Shown one piece after another: positions 37,067 through 44,737 of a DNA stretch of 64,000 bases. Source of the DNA: Synergistales bacterium (GTDB lineage: Bacteria > Synergistota > Synergistia > Synergistales > JAFGMB01); the NCBI GenBank assembly GCA_963666205.1, contig OY762654.1, positions 2,377,536 to 2,441,535 on the forward strand, in the 5' to 3' direction. The notes under the pieces were generated by a model, which did no database searches, was not told the origin of the DNA, and was given only the letters and a program-made list of their open reading frames with translations. Numbering within the stretch: the first letter of the stretch is position 1; the number at the start of each line of letters is the position of its first letter. A program made the translations under genes and the position numbers.

Positions 37067-40000
37067 TTACATTGTGTCCCAATGAAGGGGGCATTTGTTT
37101 CTGAAGGGACAGGCGTTGCATTTTCCCAGTTCAGGTTCAAAAGGACCATTTGCGGCCTTTTGTGCGCTTCGTCGGATATCTTCCTCTATTTCTTCCATGC
37201 CTCCTCCGGGCATAGCGATCCTTTCAGTTTCGATCCCTTCCCGGAGGTGGATCAGTCTCAGGTCTACAGGCAGATCCCTATCCCTCAAAGCGTGATATGC
37301 TGTCCAGCCGTAGAAGAGCAGCTGACTGGTATAAAGTTCCTCTGGAGCCTTTTCCTGGGCAGTTATCTTGTAATCCCTGATATGAATTATATTGTCCTTT
37401 TCCCACATGAGATCCATGGCACCGGTGAGTAGGGGACCATGGTCCATCCTGATCCGAAAAGGCAGTTCCCGATTTAATACTCCCTGGCAGAGGAGGTCTT
37501 TTAAAGTTCTTCCTGTTTCGGATACTGAAAGGTCCCTCAGCCATTTTCGAAGGGTCTCCCTGCTGTCCGGCTTTTTCCACTCCGGCAGAATATAGACAGG
37601 TATCCCGGTTTCAACACTGTTGTGTCCCATTACTGTCAAAGGCAGGTAGTTTTCCAGCCCATCCTCTGACAGGTCCCATTTCTGGAGTATCCAATGGGCA
37701 AGGTTCCCCAGATCAGACCCTCCCGGACCATCTGCTCCAGGGAGTTCCCACTTGAGATCCCTTCCCTGACGGTGTCTCATCCTCCATGCCAGAGGGCAGA
37801 ATTTAAAGAGACTGTAGGATGTGGCACTTAACCTGGCCAGATATTCCTTCCCCTTTACCGGTCCTTGCACAAAGGTTCTTTCTTTCTGTTCAGAAACTCT
37901 GATATTTTGTTTTTTAGCTGTTTTTACCCTGTCTGTGGCAAGGGGAAGATCCGGAAAGATCTTTTCCCATATCATTGACAGCCATGTACCATCTCGCGGT
38001 TCTGGCTTTTCTCCGTCCTTTGCTTCCAGGGTTGCGCAAAGGAACAGAGAATCCCTTGCCCTTGTGGCGGCGACGTAGAACAGGCGCTGCCATTCTTCCA
38101 GCTGTTCCTGTTTTTCCATCATTGCCGCGAGTACAGGAGAAGACGGGGTATCCTTGTTATCAGATGCGATCCCATCGGGGTATCTGGAAGGAGTGACGCC
38201 AAGAATTGCCGATGGATCAAGACTGGTTCCGTGACTTCTTTTTCCAGGGAAATACTCCATTCCCATTATTGCCAGAACGGGGAATTCGAGTCCCTTCGAA
38301 GCATGGACTGTCATTATCCTGACAACATCATCCTGTTCCCCTGTGAAGTCGGCATCTTCCATGGCTATACCTCTTCCCATGGATCCGCGAAGGTACTCGG
38401 AACATCCTCGCAGATCATTGCCCATAGCACTTTCATATTCCCTGCTGATATCTACGGCCTTCCGAAGATTCGCAGCTGCTTTCTTCCTTTTCCACGCGGG
38501 GAAAGCCTTAAGCGTATCAGCTCTTGAAAGTATAATGGAAAATACCCTTGAAACACCCTCCAGTGTGGCTATCCGTCTCCATCCTTCCATCTCCTGGAAA
38601 AGAGAGGAATTCACGTTCTGCAGGATCTCTGCGAGATCTTTTCCAGTATTTCTCTTCTCTTCAAGAAGCTTTCCAGTCTTCTCAAGGGAGAGACCTGAAA
38701 AGGGTGATGAAAGAAAGGATGTGAGGGCTGTCTGATCCCTTTTGTCAGCCAGATAATCGACCAGGGAAAGGAGGTCCTGAACCTCACTTCGGGAATAATA
38801 GCCCAGGCTGCTCTCAAAATAGCAGGGAATGGACAGGTCTTCTATGAAGGCTCTTTCAAGGGCACTGTACTGGTTTCTTGTCGGCACGAGTATAGCCATA
38901 TCCCTCCACTGGAGAGGTCTCAGCCCTTCTTCTTTTTTATCCCAGATAAGAGTGCCCTTTTCCCTTAGTTGCATTAATTCCCGCCCCAGCCTCCTGGCAA
39001 GATCAAGTCTCTTCTCCTCAGCAGGTGTTCTTTCTTTCCCTGATGTATAGAATTCAACAAGGACCTTGAGGGGAGGGGTCTGGATTTCCTGCCTTCTGCT
39101 GTGCCAATCCATGGTAACAGGGCTTTGAAGATGCTCATAAGGATGGATCAGGTCTCTTCCCAGGCCCTTTTCCCATATTTTGCCGAAGATAGAGTTTATA
39201 CCCTCCAGAACTTTCCCGCTGCTACGGAAACTGACATCAAGGTTTATGTATTTTCCCTTTCCTTGTAGAGCTTTCTGTATATATTCCAGGAAAATGGAAG
39301 GTTCAGCATGCCGGAACCGGTAGATGGACTGTTTCAGATCGCCCACCAGGAACATGGCAGGAGAACCCCTTTCCCAAATGGTCCTGAGAAGGATCTCCTG
39401 AAGTCTGTTGGTATCCTGAAATTCGTCAACAAGGACTTCCCGGAACCTCTCTGACATACTCCCGGCCTGAAGGGCTTCAATGGATCTGGAGATCATATCG
39501 TCGAAGGAGATCAGACTCTTCTTTCTCTTGTATTCTTCCCAGATCTGCCATAAAAGAGATGAAACCTCCAGCAGTGTTTCTCTGGTCTGCCTGTCTCTTC
39601 CGTCAATGCCATGAACCAGGACTTCGCATAATCTGATATGTTCGGAGTATTGATTACGGAACTCTGATACTGAGCATTCCAGCTCCTGTGCTATTTCCGC
39701 TGCCGCTTTTCCGGAAGCGCCCTTCAGAGCTTCCATAAGATCGAGGAAAAACAGAGGCAGATCTTCCCTTTGTGGTTTTTCCTCTCCCCATTTTGAGTGA
39801 ACACCCCTGAGTTTCTCTGCCAGTTTAGTCTTGCTTTCAAGGAGTATGGGCAGTCCAGGAATCAGTCCCCCGGAACCTGACCAGCGTTGCCATTCTTCTT
39901 CAAAAACAGTTGAGTATATCTCCCTGACTCTGGCCAGGGCTTCCTGGTCCCTCTTCTCCAGATCTTTGGAGAAAGACCAGAGGTCCCCGGGGTCTTGTCC

Positions 40001-40648
40001 TCGACTTGCCCATAGGGATAATATCCCCCTTGTCAGTCCGGTGATGCCCCTTGCTCCATAGCTGTTTACCAGGTCTGTCAGAAAGGGTTTATCGAATATC
40101 TGTTCCTCTCTGGATGTCCATATTCCTCTGACTCTTTTTTTAAACCAGCGGTTATCCAGAATGTCCAGTTGTTTTTCTACTTCCCGCCAGAGTTCTTCTT
40201 CCTCCGGGGTGCTCACTGGTCTTGATTCAGGGTCAAGTTCCAGGGACAGTCCCCCTTCCCTTATCATCCTCAGGGAAAAGGAATGAAGGGTGGAAATAAA
40301 AGCTTCGTCCATTTCTTCCCGGGCTTCTTCAAGGAGAGGGGACAGTGATGGCACTAGAGAGGCCACCTTTCCCAGGAGATCCCTTATCCTGTCTTTCATT
40401 TCCAGAGCGGCTTTTTCGGTAAAAGTAAGGGTCAGTATCTCCTTTACCCTTGCCTTTCCTGTGGCGATTGCCCATACAAAACGCCAGGCCAGGGTCCATG
40501 TTTTCCCAGTTCCTGCCCCCGCACTTACTACCACCAGAGGATCTTCAGCCATGATTGCTTCCCTCTGTCCAGGAAGGGTGGTCTTTTCCAGCAGGACTGT
40601 AAGTTCCTCTATGCCTGTAACTGTTTTTTCCCTGTCAGTCCCTATCAT
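37067..40648 (-). CDS. addA: UvrD-family helicase-nuclease, AddA-like
   Basis: AGAGTGKT, DEFQDTN, GDLKQSIYRFR, TVHASKGLEF, YVAATRA, C-terminal DYK nuclease; start at ATG 40648. Confidence 0.9.
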   Translation of the reverse strand: MIGTDREKTVTGIEELTVLLEKTTLPGQREAIMAEDPLVVVSAGAGTGKTWTLAWRFVWAIATGKARVKEILTLTFTEKAALEMKDRIRDLLGKVASLVPSLSPLLEEAREEMDEAFISTLHSFSLRMIREGGLSLELDPESRPVSTPEEEELWREVEKQLDILDNRWFKKRVRGIWTSREEQIFDKPFLTDLVNSYGARGITGLTRGILSLWASRGQDPGDLWSFSKDLEKRDQEALARVREIYSTVFEEEWQRWSGSGGLIPGLPILLESKTKLAEKLRGVHSKWGEEKPQREDLPLFFLDLMEALKGASGKAAAEIAQELECSVSEFRNQYSEHIRLCEVLVHGIDGRDRQTRETLLEVSSLLWQIWEEYKRKKSLISFDDMISRSIEALQAGSMSERFREVLVDEFQDTNRLQEILLRTIWERGSPAMFLVGDLKQSIYRFRHAEPSIFLEYIQKALQGKGKYINLDVSFRSSGKVLEGINSIFGKIWEKGLGRDLIHPYEHLQSPVTMDWHSRRQEIQTPPLKVLVEFYTSGKERTPAEEKRLDLARRLGRELMQLREKGTLIWDKKEEGLRPLQWRDMAILVPTRNQYSALERAFIEDLSIPCYFESSLGYYSRSEVQDLLSLVDYLADKRDQTALTSFLSSPFSGLSLEKTGKLLEEKRNTGKDLAEILQNVNSSLFQEMEGWRRIATLEGVSRVFSIILSRADTLKAFPAWKRKKAAANLRKAVDISREYESAMGNDLRGCSEYLRGSMGRGIAMEDADFTGEQDDVVRIMTVHASKGLEFPVLAIMGMEYFPGKRSHGTSLDPSAILGVTPSRYPDGIASDNKDTPSSPVLAAMMEKQEQLEEWQRLFYVAATRARDSLFLCATLEAKDGEKPEPRDGTWLSMIWEKIFPDLPLATDRVKTAKKQNIRVSEQKERTFVQGPVKGKEYLARLSATSYSLFKFCPLAWRMRHRQGRDLKWELPGADGPGGSDLGNLAHWILQKWDLSEDGLENYLPLTVMGHNSVETGIPVYILPEWKKPDSRETLRKWLRDLSVSETGRTLKDLLCQGVLNRELPFRIRMDHGPLLTGAMDLMWEKDNIIHIRDYKITAQEKAPEELYTSQLLFYGWTAYHALRDRDLPVDLRLIHLREGIETERIAMPGGGMEEIEEDIRRSAQKAANGPFEPELGKCNACPFRNKCPLHWDTM

Positions 40649-43562
40649 CCTGGATTTCTCCTTCCGGGTTTTCCTGTCTTCTGCATATTCCTGAATAGGG
40701 GCAGTACCTGCAGGATTCCGAGTTATAATCGGGAATGAATTCCCCCCTCTTGATGTGACCTGCCATTTCACCAAGATGATATTCGGCTTTCTCCAGTTTT
40801 TCGTCCAGGGATATGCCCTTCTTTGAAAGGCCCAGGTATTCAGCTGTTGGAACATCACAGGAGGATCCTGTTATTCTTCCGTCTGCGTGACAGAGATAGC
40901 CGTAACCGCATATTCCCGCAAAAGGACTATTACTGGTATGAGAAGCTTTTTTGAGGAGCAGACAGTAGGCTGCCAGTTGCATGCTATTCCTGAATCGGGA
41001 ACTGTTGCCGCTTTTGTAGTCTATGACCACAGCACTGCCTTCATCAAGGATGTCCAGCCTGTCAAAACGTCCTCTGAAAATTACTCCATCTATCTCCAGA
41101 TCGGGGAGCATCCCTTCCAGGACAGGAGGGAAATCCTTGTTTCGGATGGAACTCCCTTCCATCCGGTCCTGAAGATCACCAGCCTTGGAAAGATCTGCTT
41201 CAAATCTTTTCAGATGCCTTCTCAGGGATGGGTCGGAGAGAAGTTCCGGATAACATTTCTTCAAAGATCCTTCCAGGAAAGTTCTGGAAATATATTGAAG
41301 TGATCCGCCCTCATCGACGTATTTTCTCCAGGTGGCTTCCCATATCCTATGGAGAGCTATCCCTGATTTTATTCTGTCAAAACCGATGCGGGTCTTTTCT
41401 TCCATCCTTAATATATGCCTGCAGTAATATAGGAAAGGACAGGCTATCCAGTCATCTATGGAACTGAGGTGTACTATCCAGGCTTTTTCTTCAGGTTCTA
41501 TCCTTGTGAGGGGAAGGATACGTTCCTTAATTGATGATGGATAATATCCCAGTTCTCCTACTTCAATTCCCTTCACATGTATTTCGGTGTCAAGGGGGAG
41601 AATACGGTTCAGGCCTCTGGTTATCAGCTTCCCATTCCCGGCTGTATTTGAAGCCCAGAAGCTATTCCCTTTTTCAAGAGACCTTTCCAGAAATGGTGAA
41701 GCTGAGAGCGGTCTTCCTGAAGTATCGGTTTCAGGCCATGAAAGAAGGCTGAGATCCTCTCCACAAGCAATTATTCTTCGGAAAAGGTACTCTTTCTGCC
41801 TTCTCAGTTCAGGAACAAGGGGCAAATGGCCTTCCCCAAGGTCCAGGCCGGAATGAAGAGCCTCTTTTCTCGAATCGGGAAGAAGATCGGTCTCTCTCAG
41901 AGTTCCAGGCCAGTTTCCTGTAGAAACACCGGCAAATATCCACAACCTGTTTCTGGCCAGGACTGGAGGAGTTCCGGGATACACTTCTATGGAATCGCCT
42001 CTCGAAGGGGCATTCCAGATTGTGGATGTTTCAGCCCATCTGCGGAGGAATTCGAAGGCCTTGCTACCCGTAAGGATATCTTTGCCTGCAGGGCCTATAT
42101 TTTCAACAAGTTCGCTTATGGAAACCAGCTTTTCTTCTGTTTCCCTGATAGCGGCATTCATTCTTCTGCAGGTTTCATCAAGTTCCTGCATTTTCATAAC
42201 GTAGGAGGAGATCTTCATTTCCGATCCCGTATCAATGAATAGATCTCTCAGAGCCTTCAGTATTTCTGCTGCAGTTCCACCTTCACTAAGGGTTTTGCTG
42301 AAAGCCTTAATGGCTCCGAAAGAAACTGTAATCAAGGGAGTATCCAGGGAAGAAATGAAATTGCACCATTCATCTTCTCCAGATGGATTTACTGCCTCAA
42401 ATCTTTCAACCGGGAAATAATCTCCACAGAAAAAGGGTTCCTGAAGAAGTCTGGCTGTTTTACTGGAGGGCCAGTCATTCTGGAAAGATTCCCAGACTCT
42501 CCCCGCGAGTTCCCAGAGAGGGGTCCGGGAAACAGTCAGACCCTCCAGAAGTACAAAGGGAAGTTCATATCTTCCGAAAACTTCCTCAACCTGCCGGATG
42601 TACTCGGGAGGGCAGGTCATGGAAATATATCCCCAGCCGGGAAAGGAAGTCCCGCTATAATTCTGGAGTTCTCCAGTGGAATTACTCCATAGAACCAGTT
42701 CTCTTGCAATTGTCTCGATTTCCAGTCTTCTGTCCCCACCTTGAATGGGAATAACTTCCAGGGGAGAGTTATCGCTGATGTTTACTGTTTTTTCTCCCTC
42801 GAACTGACTCAACACAGTGTAGGCTTTTTTCACTCCTGTCTGGGGTGTGAATATGACAAGGTCTCCGGCCTTTTGAGAAAGGGTCCTTACCAGCTTCAGC
42901 TGACTGTGGTTAAAACTCAGGAACCCAGTGAAGATGAAGGATCTCCTTTTTATCCATTCAGACCCTTCAGGTCCTGTGTCTATGATATTCCTTGTCAGTG
43001 TGGCTATCTGAGCACTGTCACAGAGTCCATGTCCTTTCAGATAGTTGAAATAGAGATGATAAGCTTTGCACAGGATCCCTTCCGGTTCTTTGTCGTGTTC
43101 GCATTTACCCTCGCCGTTACAACAGGAACATCCCATTATTTCTGAAAGGCTGGCCGGCTCAATTTCTTCCCGCATAAGATCGCGGAGAGAGTCTCCCAGT
43201 CGTGAGGCAAAACCCTTCTGCTTTATCCCTGGAAGATGGCACGAAAAATCTTCATCTTTCAGCATATTGTCCAGGATGTGTTGAATGATAAGCCAGTGGT
43301 CTGGAGGATCTATCTGTCTCCGGTGGTAGGGAGTTGATGGAACGCCATTCTGTATTTCCCTGAAAAGGTCTCCCCAACGCCATATATGGGGAAAAGGGAT
43401 ACCTATTCCTCCCTTTTCGAGTAACATTTCCTTGAGTAGTTCCATGTCTGCTCTTGTAGGAACCACGAAGATCTTTTCAGAGGTTGCCCCCTGACCTGTC
43501 CAGGCTTGATGGTTCAACTCTTCAGATAATTCCGAGATCCTGCGATAAGTAAAGATATGCAT
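40635..43562 (-). CDS. addB: Inactive-helicase/PD-(D/E)XK nuclease, AddB-like
   Basis: CPF, GRFDRLD, IDYKSG, QLAAY, CRYCPYSGIC; overlaps the addA start. Confidence 0.87.
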   Translation of the reverse strand: MHIFTYRRISELSEELNHQAWTGQGATSEKIFVVPTRADMELLKEMLLEKGGIGIPFPHIWRWGDLFREIQNGVPSTPYHRRQIDPPDHWLIIQHILDNMLKDEDFSCHLPGIKQKGFASRLGDSLRDLMREEIEPASLSEIMGCSCCNGEGKCEHDKEPEGILCKAYHLYFNYLKGHGLCDSAQIATLTRNIIDTGPEGSEWIKRRSFIFTGFLSFNHSQLKLVRTLSQKAGDLVIFTPQTGVKKAYTVLSQFEGEKTVNISDNSPLEVIPIQGGDRRLEIETIARELVLWSNSTGELQNYSGTSFPGWGYISMTCPPEYIRQVEEVFGRYELPFVLLEGLTVSRTPLWELAGRVWESFQNDWPSSKTARLLQEPFFCGDYFPVERFEAVNPSGEDEWCNFISSLDTPLITVSFGAIKAFSKTLSEGGTAAEILKALRDLFIDTGSEMKISSYVMKMQELDETCRRMNAAIRETEEKLVSISELVENIGPAGKDILTGSKAFEFLRRWAETSTIWNAPSRGDSIEVYPGTPPVLARNRLWIFAGVSTGNWPGTLRETDLLPDSRKEALHSGLDLGEGHLPLVPELRRQKEYLFRRIIACGEDLSLLSWPETDTSGRPLSASPFLERSLEKGNSFWASNTAGNGKLITRGLNRILPLDTEIHVKGIEVGELGYYPSSIKERILPLTRIEPEEKAWIVHLSSIDDWIACPFLYYCRHILRMEEKTRIGFDRIKSGIALHRIWEATWRKYVDEGGSLQYISRTFLEGSLKKCYPELLSDPSLRRHLKRFEADLSKAGDLQDRMEGSSIRNKDFPPVLEGMLPDLEIDGVIFRGRFDRLDILDEGSAVVIDYKSGNSSRFRNSMQLAAYCLLLKKASHTSNSPFAGICGYGYLCHADGRITGSSCDVPTAEYLGLSKKGISLDEKLEKAEYHLGEMAGHIKRGEFIPDYNSESCRYCPYSGICRRQENPEGEIQDDRD

Positions 43563-43718
43563 CCTATCAGCTCCGTAGGTATTATTATTTCTATTCTACC
43601 AAGTACAGTAAAAAAGGTTTGGAAAATATTTATAATTTACAGGATTTGATATATACTAACGTTAAATAGAAAAAGCTTTAGCATGCGATTGGGATAATCT
43701 TTATTTGAGGTGATGTGT

Positions 43719-44111
43719 ATGTCCAGACGTGCGGTCCTTGTTGTAGTTCTTGTTGTTCTGGTAGTAGCAGGTTTTACCTTAATAATCGGTAAAGGAACGT
43801 CCTGGTTCAATGCCTCCTCTGGTCCGAAACTTGAGATTGACGAAGATGCCCTGACCCAGATGAGCGGGAGTGGAAACGAGTTTTACGTAAGACCGGGCAG
43901 AGCAGGCTGAGGTGCTCCGCTGCAGGCGCTCGTGAAGCGTGGAAAACCCGGAAAAGATCCGGACAGTTATATTCAGTGTAATTCAGGAGACATATGTCTG
44001 TGGGTTCCAGGAGATCTTGAGTTCAGGGATAATCTGGTCCATGTGATCCTTGACAAGGGCCGGGGCAGGAAAATATTACTTGTAGAAACTGCACTTCTGT
44101 CTTCTCAGTAG
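43719..44111 (+). CDS. Putative membrane-anchored selenoprotein (130 aa, Sec64 at TGA 43908-43910), HesB-like/CC-Se-like
   Basis: Frame stays open 66 codons past the TGA (UGAPLQALVKRGKP...LWVP...LLVETALLSSQ*); homologous to the next gene on both sides of the TGA; SECIS-like hairpin; RBS GAGGTG. Confidence 0.85.
43926..43940 (+). promoter_or_regulatory. Bacterial SECIS-like hairpin (gene 1)
   Basis: GCGCT-CGTGA-AGCGT at +16..+30 after the TGA, loop GT at +22/+23. Confidence 0.65.
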
Positions 44112-44214
44112 GACTTGAGTAAATTCAGTAGTTTTCCGGTTCTGTCATTAGCTTTTTAGTTGTAGAATGTTCTGAAGAGATTGAGTTTCTATTCTTTTGA
44201 AAGGAGAAATATGC

Positions 44215-44598
44215 ATGAAAAACAAACTGTTATTGTTGTTAGTTGCCGTGATAATTGTATTCACTATGATCCTTCCTGCGATGAGTGCAGAGGATCTTGT
44301 GCTTGATATCACTTCTGTGGCAAGGGCTGAAATGGCTCCGCAGGGGTATGAGTGGTTCGTAAAACCCGGTACATATCAGGGTTTCTGAGGAGAACCACTT
44401 TCCGCTCTGGTTCGGAGCGGCATGCCTGAAAAGCCGGAACAGTTCAACCTTCTGACTGAAGAGGATATGAAGGTCTGGGTACCCAAGGGAATGACATTCC
44501 AGAACAATCTTGTAAAGATAATAGCCCTTCCCTATAAGGGGAAAAAAGTTTTAAAGGTTTCCACTGCCCAGACCATGGAGGGTGAAGGCTGCGATTAG
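44215..44598 (+). CDS. Putative secreted selenoprotein (127 aa, Sec58 at TGA 44386-44388), HesB-like/CC-Se-like
   Basis: Signal peptide; frame open 69 codons past the TGA (UGEPLSALVRSGMP...VWVP...LKVSTAQTMEGEGCD*); RBS AAGGAG; terminator lies right after the TAG, not after the TGA. Confidence 0.87.
44402..44420 (+). promoter_or_regulatory. Bacterial SECIS-like hairpin (gene 2)
   Basis: CCGCTCTG-GTT-CGGAGCGG at +14..+32 after the TGA, loop GT at +22/+23. Confidence 0.75.
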
Positions 44599-44607
44599 TG
44601 TGTCAGT

Positions 44608-44647
44608 AATGAAAAGGGGCGGGTCTTCTGACTCGCCCCTTTTCATT
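44608..44647 (+). terminator. Intrinsic terminator after the selenoprotein pair
   Basis: AATGAAAAGGGGCGGGTC-TTCT-GACTCGCCCCTTTTCATT. Confidence 0.85.
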
Positions 44648-44737
44648 CTGATGTAACAGGAAATATTTCTTTTCATTTTCATATAGTTGGATCCCTATTA
44701 TAATGAGGCGATAATTAATTTAAAGGCGGTGTGCTGT

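Follow-up and report, generated by a model that had tools for sequence, protein, structure and literature searches.

The window, as we call the whole stretch of 64,000 nucleotides that was analysed, carries two tandem genes, each interrupted by an in-frame TGA with a hairpin shortly downstream. Hairpin positions are numbered from the first base after the TGA.

43719..44111, + strand: gene 1, 130 amino acids with the TGA read as selenocysteine (U64)
43908..43910, + strand: in-frame TGA of gene 1, predicted selenocysteine codon
43926..43940, + strand: SECIS-type hairpin of gene 1, stem +16..+20 with +26..+30, loop CGUGA (43931-43935), -5.2 kcal/mol
44215..44598, + strand: gene 2, 127 amino acids with the TGA read as selenocysteine (U58)
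44386..44388, + strand: in-frame TGA of gene 2, predicted selenocysteine codon
44402..44420, + strand: SECIS-type hairpin of gene 2, 8-bp stem +14..+21 with +25..+32, loop GUU (44410-44412), -12.2 kcal/mol
44599..44655, + strand: strong terminator-like inverted repeat 3' of gene 2, -38.7 kcal/mol over 44599-44665

Genes 1 and 2 are paralogs (39% identity over 90 amino acids). The TGA of one is aligned with the TGA of the other, and this column is TGA in 129 rows of the family. The N-termini of both proteins are hydrophobic and signal-like; given this feature of its sequence, the gene 1 protein is likely exported or membrane-anchored. The inverted repeat 3' of gene 2 is likely the end of a two-gene unit; it is not listed by a consensus scan. 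Contigs from RNA libraries of two studies cover both genes and end at 44616-44641, near the terminator-like hairpin. They carry no information on strand, level or read-through, and their ends near the hairpin give a weak hint that the genes are one transcribed unit. Two large helicase/nuclease ORFs lie head to head with the pair (window 37067-43562, - strand); by their motifs we take them to be AddA/AddB-like.

The Pfam search returned no match for either protein. Against NF041239 (CC/Se motif, Moor_selen_rel) gene 2 scores 23.9 bits and does not reach the cut-off of 40, and the search with gene 1 gives no match. The same model is matched at E <= 0.01 by 29 of the 31 aligned family members, and a paralog at 578 kb of the genome passes the cut-off with 44.4 bits. 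The CxxU motif is absent, as the residues at the site are RAG-U in gene 1 and QGF-U in gene 2, with no Cys at -3. We suggest from these comparisons that genes 1 and 2 are distant kin of the CC/Se-motif family NF041239, which is HesB/IscA-like.

The domain spanning the TGA is predicted as one domain with a pLDDT of 88.9. The gene 2 model aligns with SufA/IscA at Z 7.5 (rmsd 3.2 Å, 86 aligned), where Z 8 is the tool's "clear" level. With the same model, the top 10 Foldseek rows are mostly SufA/IscA-like, none of them at E <= 0.001. The fold of gene 2 may be SufA/IscA-like. In three of the four paralogs the C-terminus is a short Gly/Ser tail in which a Cys stands close to the end (EGEGCD, GSGSCGI and SSGDCN, at window 44575-44598, genome 578 kb and 1992 kb); these tails presumably recall the C-terminal Cys of IscA-type carriers.

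The genome, 2.95 Mb in one contig, contains tRNA-Sec, a selD gene that itself carries a TGA, and selA and selB, which both score above their cut-offs, selB with a winged-helix domain. TGA also serves as a normal stop in this genome.

Base pairing in the two genes and across the family

The sequence-only reading had named five pairs in one register behind both TGAs, with GT at +22/+23. All of these are present. In gene 1 the pairs are G-T at +16:+30, C-G at +17:+29, G-C at +18:+28, C-G at +19:+27 and T-A at +20:+26; in gene 2 they are, in the same order, G-C, C-G, T-A, C-G and T-G. The GT is found in both genes. Three of the pairs had also been described as covarying, and here the claim holds for +18:+28, the only one that changes on both sides between the genes; +16:+30 and +20:+26 show one-sided wobble changes. 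The stem of gene 2 additionally includes +14:+32, +15:+31 and +21:+25, which makes 8 bp around the GTT loop.

The bases GT at +22/+23 open a Val codon. This codon occurs without exception in the 31 aligned proteins, and all five in-register homologs with a Cys codon retain it as well; hence, the loop GT by itself is no evidence. The stem was compared with synonymous-codon resampling in which the proteins are fixed: all five pairs arise in both genes at a frequency of 0.0002-0.0016 under three codon models, and the pairing in both genes exceeds chance. Folding of the 27-nt hairpin gives z = -3.63 for gene 2, with 0 of 200 shuffles as good, and z = +0.24 for gene 1, which is no more stable than its shuffles. 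The 60-nt contexts of the two hairpins are not unusual in folding (z -0.04 and -0.23). Over +1..+45 the lowest-energy fold of gene 1 is another one, at -12.1 kcal/mol. Its stem is the weakest among the 129 TGA rows, and its same-genus ortholog reaches -7.4 kcal/mol through a G-C at +16:+30. The hairpins of gene 1 and gene 2 are real.

A profile search of 201 Synergistota genomes matched the family in 92. Most but not all matches were taken, giving 146 distinct rows; the column reads TGA in 129 of them, a Cys codon in 8 and some other codon in 9. Of the 28 records of relatives found with the family alignment, 26 are named Synergistota, one is an unclassified "bacterium" and one is a weak Verrucomicrobial match, which is probably unrelated. 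RNAalifold on the first 34 rows returned the five named pairs unaided.

Loss of the pairing in orthologs had been named as counter-evidence by the sequence-only reading; the orthologs instead conserve it, with all five pairs kept in 90 of 129 TGA rows and at least four in 117. The family rows are kin, so that the codon-null and shuffle figures overstate significance: the synonymous-codon null expects 7-10 fully paired rows and reaches 19 at most; 586 of 645 cells in TGA rows are paired, against a null mean of 379-398 and a maximum of 432 in 1000 runs (three synonymous-codon models); and in a set of 115 rows from outside the own genus the observed score is not reached by any of 500 shuffles. 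The latter set holds 115 of 116 listed rows, one insertion row being omitted. In it 86.3% of cells are paired, slid registers are 39-53% paired, and two-sided changes occur in 7 of 8 pairs. The pair +21:+25, absent from the earlier list, is a second covarying pair.

The pair +18:+28 is formed in 126 of 129 TGA rows (C-G 59, U-A 58, G-C 8, U-G 1). Position +18 is a silent third codon position, which tracks the first base of the codon opposite. Codon choice within the stem follows the same needs: codon 9 is AAG in 16 rows and AAA in none, GAG in 68 and GAA in 6, and the Ser codons at codon 10 are AGY in 52 of 53 cases. A FastTree tree built after masking the hairpin residues, with 85 columns only and many weak forks, requires 12 changes from one Watson-Crick type to another at +18:+28. 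The well-supported branches offer only 3 independent +18:+28 pairs, all concordant (sign test p 0.25), and a separately fetched set has a mismatch at +18:+28 in 5 of 27 TGA rows. The sequence comparisons support the view that the hairpins are under selection for pairing.

The most common position of the loop, +22..+24, is found in 79 of 129 rows, and 26 and 10 further rows share the same axis; GT stands at +22/+23 in 123 of 129 TGA rows. In two rows a one-codon insertion places the hairpin at +25. Altogether, the family contains 105 distinct stem-loop variants.

A subclade with the peptide V-F/V/L-R/K-V/I-E (L124, L130, L133-L135, L137-L140, L147, L158, L166 and L168) has the lower stem only and a larger loop, and in four rows the G at +22 is replaced by A. 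These natural loop variants may test what SelB needs.

In the Cys rows (n=8) 24 of 40 cells are paired, versus 21-22 in the null, and one of the eight rows is fully paired. Three of them are out of register by a one-codon insertion; the other five are in register, and pairs have been lost from four of these. Pairing thus decays in most homologs with a Cys codon. At L073 (G190:C6) a Cys copy and a Sec copy lie in tandem and share the local peptide, and the Cys copy has lost +18:+28; at L074 (G140:C1), also a tandem Sec/Cys paralog pair, the Cys copy keeps the whole stem. On supported branches the Sec versus Cys contrast comes down to 2 independent pairs and is not significant. Remnant SECIS-like hairpins in Cys homologs are already known, as the available part of PMC1794560 reports. 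One further row, L089 (G004:C138:2320-2950), has TAA at the Sec site and the full hairpin; the TAA is either a recent inactivation or an assembly error.

Register in other selenoprotein genes and the proposed use of the hairpin as gene finder

The genome has 20 candidate selenoprotein UGAs, obtained from family searches and a coding-score scan and to be read as predictions only. A candidate at genome 1,102,226, with no G[GU]-loop hairpin and no family, is omitted from the 20. The position of the loop G differs from family to family: +18 in selD, +19 in grdB, +21 in the fourth paralog, +22 in three paralogs, +23 in two rhodaneses, +24 in an ArsM-like gene, +25 in fdhA, +26 in Tpx, +29 in BCP and +30 in thioredoxin. 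In relatives the register is +18 in 28 of 30 selD rows and +19 in all 12 grdB rows, and the five named pairs are found in 0 of 30 selD, 0 of 12 grdB and 0 of 28 grdA rows. The sequence-only reading had proposed to compare spacing with grdA, grdB, selD and fdh, and had named a different spacing there as refuting its model; grdB, selD and fdhA do turn out to have other spacings. In the sequences compared, the register is fixed per gene family and is not organism-wide, and the register common to genes 1 and 2 is due to common descent. According to the accessible text of PMC1794560, SECIS phylogenies follow their selenoprotein genes. A Synergistota selD example in the part of PMC13326102 at hand has a GGC loop at +18, the same position as found here for selD.

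The Synergistota grdA genes (28 rows; loci L214-L242, L033 and L034) have no clear G[GU]-loop hairpin. Their best conserved stem carries a loop of the AGAAUCA/AGAACCA type at +26..+32, and the grdA SECIS is possibly atypical. Since grdA is a textbook selenoprotein, a strong hairpin is not needed everywhere.

The fixed-register rule matches at 106 of 113,874 TGAs in the genome. It recovers 3 of the 20 candidates, all of them paralogs, and misses the fourth paralog; among the 16 candidates that are not paralogs it recovers none. None of the 17 extra matches with ORF context scores as coding on both sides. The covariance model R1, built without the own genus, retrieves the same three paralogs only in the genome, where it scored 150 of the 366 first-look candidates. 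With filters off, it finds nothing outside the family at 33 loci, and the fourth paralog scores no better than the Cys copies; it has no match in 59 selD/grdA loci. The hope of a lineage-specific SECIS model for finding hidden selenoproteins is therefore not borne out, because the fixed rule and the covariance model retrieve paralogs only and no new gene.

A register-free rule (G[GU] loop, stem of at least 6 pairs, G at +17..+31) recovers 13 of the 20 candidates and misses gene 1 itself. It fires at 1007 of 113,874 TGAs, so that a coding filter is needed. This rule is essentially the published bacterial SECIS consensus, and it points to a few candidates for C-terminal selenocysteine tails.

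One of these is a 343-aa gene at genome 1007933-1008964 (+ strand; L176, L202), conserved, of no known family, and located a few kb from the grdA/grdB cluster. Past the TGA it has the tail PPGG-U-KGTC, with an 8-bp hairpin, a CGUGA loop and the G at +27. Its same-genus ortholog (L203) keeps the TGA, the tail (KGAC) and the hairpin, with the loop CGGGA; in two same-family orthologs a TAG ends the gene immediately ahead of the tail. The tail, GG-U-KGxC, is a candidate genus-specific Sec tail.

A 136-aa ORF at genome 1393293-1393703 (+ strand; L177) ends in SACSGG-U-SLD and has a hairpin of -23.7 kcal/mol with a GUC loop and the G at +20. For this ORF (TGA at genome 1,393,689) no family was found, and no ortholog covering the tail among 40 relatives with the query used. 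Two more candidates by the register-free rule are a signal-peptide protein at genome 1100740-1101648 (- strand; L178), whose Gly/Ser-rich tail ends in GGS-U-SSTC, and a rhodanese at genome 2172218-2172631 (- strand; L179) ending in GCSS-U-A; each of them has a G[GU]- or GG-loop hairpin.

Origin, role and meaning of the hairpins

The bacterial consensus, in the portion of PMC13188914 available to us, comprises a 3-9 nt loop, a 4-16 bp stem, the loop pattern N1-G[G/U]-N-N2, a 16-37 nt spacing and a threshold of -7.5 kcal/mol. Like this consensus, both hairpins lie in the coding region directly after an in-frame UGA of a conserved ORF. Gene 1 has a 5 nt loop on 5 bp and gene 2 a 3 nt loop on 8 bp, and the distance from UGA to loop is 20 and 21 nt; all of these values are within the consensus ranges. 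A G stands in the first two loop positions of both CGUGA and GUU, as in the consensus, and the Val codon demands the same bases. Gene 2, at -12.2 kcal/mol, lies beyond the energy threshold, and gene 1 falls short of it at -5.2 kcal/mol, a value for the isolated hairpin and not for bSECISearch's own window. Within the family, 123 of 129 rows agree with the loop, G and spacing rules as given in that portion, and 118 with the energy cut-off too. The consensus is register-free and is not built on covariation in the family of genes 1 and 2.

The Rfam scan of 43600-44700 gave 14 weak matches, none of them a SECIS and none at the gathering score, most of them on the terminator-like hairpin. SECIS_2, SECIS_3 and SECIS_4 (RF01988-RF01990) do not match at the hairpins of genes 1 and 2, and no Rfam family covering them was found. 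SECIS_4 exceeds its cut-off at both grdB elements of the genome, and SECIS_3 has a weak match at fdhA. Since SECIS_4 matches only the two grdB elements, the Rfam SECIS models also behave as gene-family models. In the literature within our scope, which lacks most subscription journals and supplements, no work on covariation in the SECIS of this family was found; BSepDB entries or supplements may list genes 1 and 2 with a SECIS already. The two hairpins are likely new, well-supported examples of ordinary bacterial SECIS.

We suggest that the covarying hairpins, which are real and lie in two paralogous coding sequences, are very probably ordinary bacterial SECIS elements for selenocysteine insertion, with a register of the family's own; read-through is what we infer from them. 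SelB is described in the consulted part of PMC4605307 as binding the SECIS through winged-helix domains 3-4, typically to a hairpin of 6-8 bp with the loop G about 20 nt past the UGA, and as tolerating spacing differences through its WHD2-3 hinge. In the proposed mechanism SelB would recognise the loop G/U at +22/+23 and, once bound, deliver selenocysteine to the UGA just upstream, at U64 and U58. Less efficient read-through would be expected for gene 1 than for gene 2. Both hairpins ride on one inherited protein motif (U-x5-A/V-L-V-x-S/G/R-G), and genes 1 and 2 share the register because the same motif carries both. The loop GU comes from the Val codon, each third base of the Ala and Leu codons follows the first base of the codon it faces, and one inserted codon shifts the hairpin by three bases.

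The covariation and the shared register might be explained in other ways. If the fixed +16:+30 register were a lineage-wide Synergistota SECIS, it would serve as a genome-wide finder of hidden selenoproteins. The register does hold across the order, with the loop at +22..+24 in 79 of 129 rows, and similar loop words (C-GUU-G, C-GUG-U/A) occur in the genome's fdhA, in a twin-UGA gene and in a zinc-ribbon gene. However, the fixed rule recovers 3 of 20 candidates and 0 of 16 non-paralogs, model R1 finds paralogs only, and in relatives selD is at +18 and grdB at +19. The lineage-wide fixed-register model is refuted by these results, and we regard a lineage-wide role of this register as highly improbable.

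Codon bias and the conserved A-L-V-x-S/G-G peptide could also produce the pairing as a side effect, without any selected RNA structure. The protein does fix several paired positions, so that the null is already about 60% paired; the loop GT is a Val codon, the gene 1 stem is weak, and coding sequence makes covariation of its own. Such covariation arises within codons, according to the part of PMC11234323 that was available, whereas here 10 nt separate the covarying bases, which belong to different codons, and position +18 is silent. Moreover, the pairing is far above three synonymous-codon nulls, and Cys homologs with the same peptide are not, which leaves a mere by-product with hardly any probability. 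Equally remote is selection of the hairpin for another job, such as mRNA stability or pausing, with the UGA as a true stop or as Trp or Cys. L089, which has TAA at the site yet keeps the hairpin, speaks for it. Against it, conservation of the protein extends to both sides of the TGA, the structure prediction gives one domain across it, homologs have Cys codons in the same column, the hairpin decays where Cys replaces UGA, and TGA is a normal stop in the genome, which also has a tRNA-Sec. We therefore prefer the reading of the two hairpins as SECIS elements for selenocysteine insertion.

Last but not least, the family might amount to a natural saturation map of a bacterial SECIS, not described before, with the RNA stem steering how the protein evolves, and the register-free grammar might expose unannotated C-terminal Sec tails in the genome, such as that of the 343-aa gene near the glycine reductase cluster. 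We put this forward tentatively, with slightly more doubt than belief. It would fit that residue +10 (Ser, Gly, Arg, Asp, Pro) appears to switch almost only when the silent site ten bases upstream changes too, which happens about a dozen times along the tree.

The finding gives no lineage-wide gene finder and leaves the knowledge of how bacterial SECIS elements work unchanged. It supplies a covariance model for a SECIS outside the coverage of the Rfam search, and its 105 stem-loop variants reveal the range of tolerated pairs and loops. For the organism and its relatives, it provides unusually clean comparative support for two unannotated UGA genes, and for their family in 92 of the 201 Synergistota genomes searched, as selenoprotein genes.
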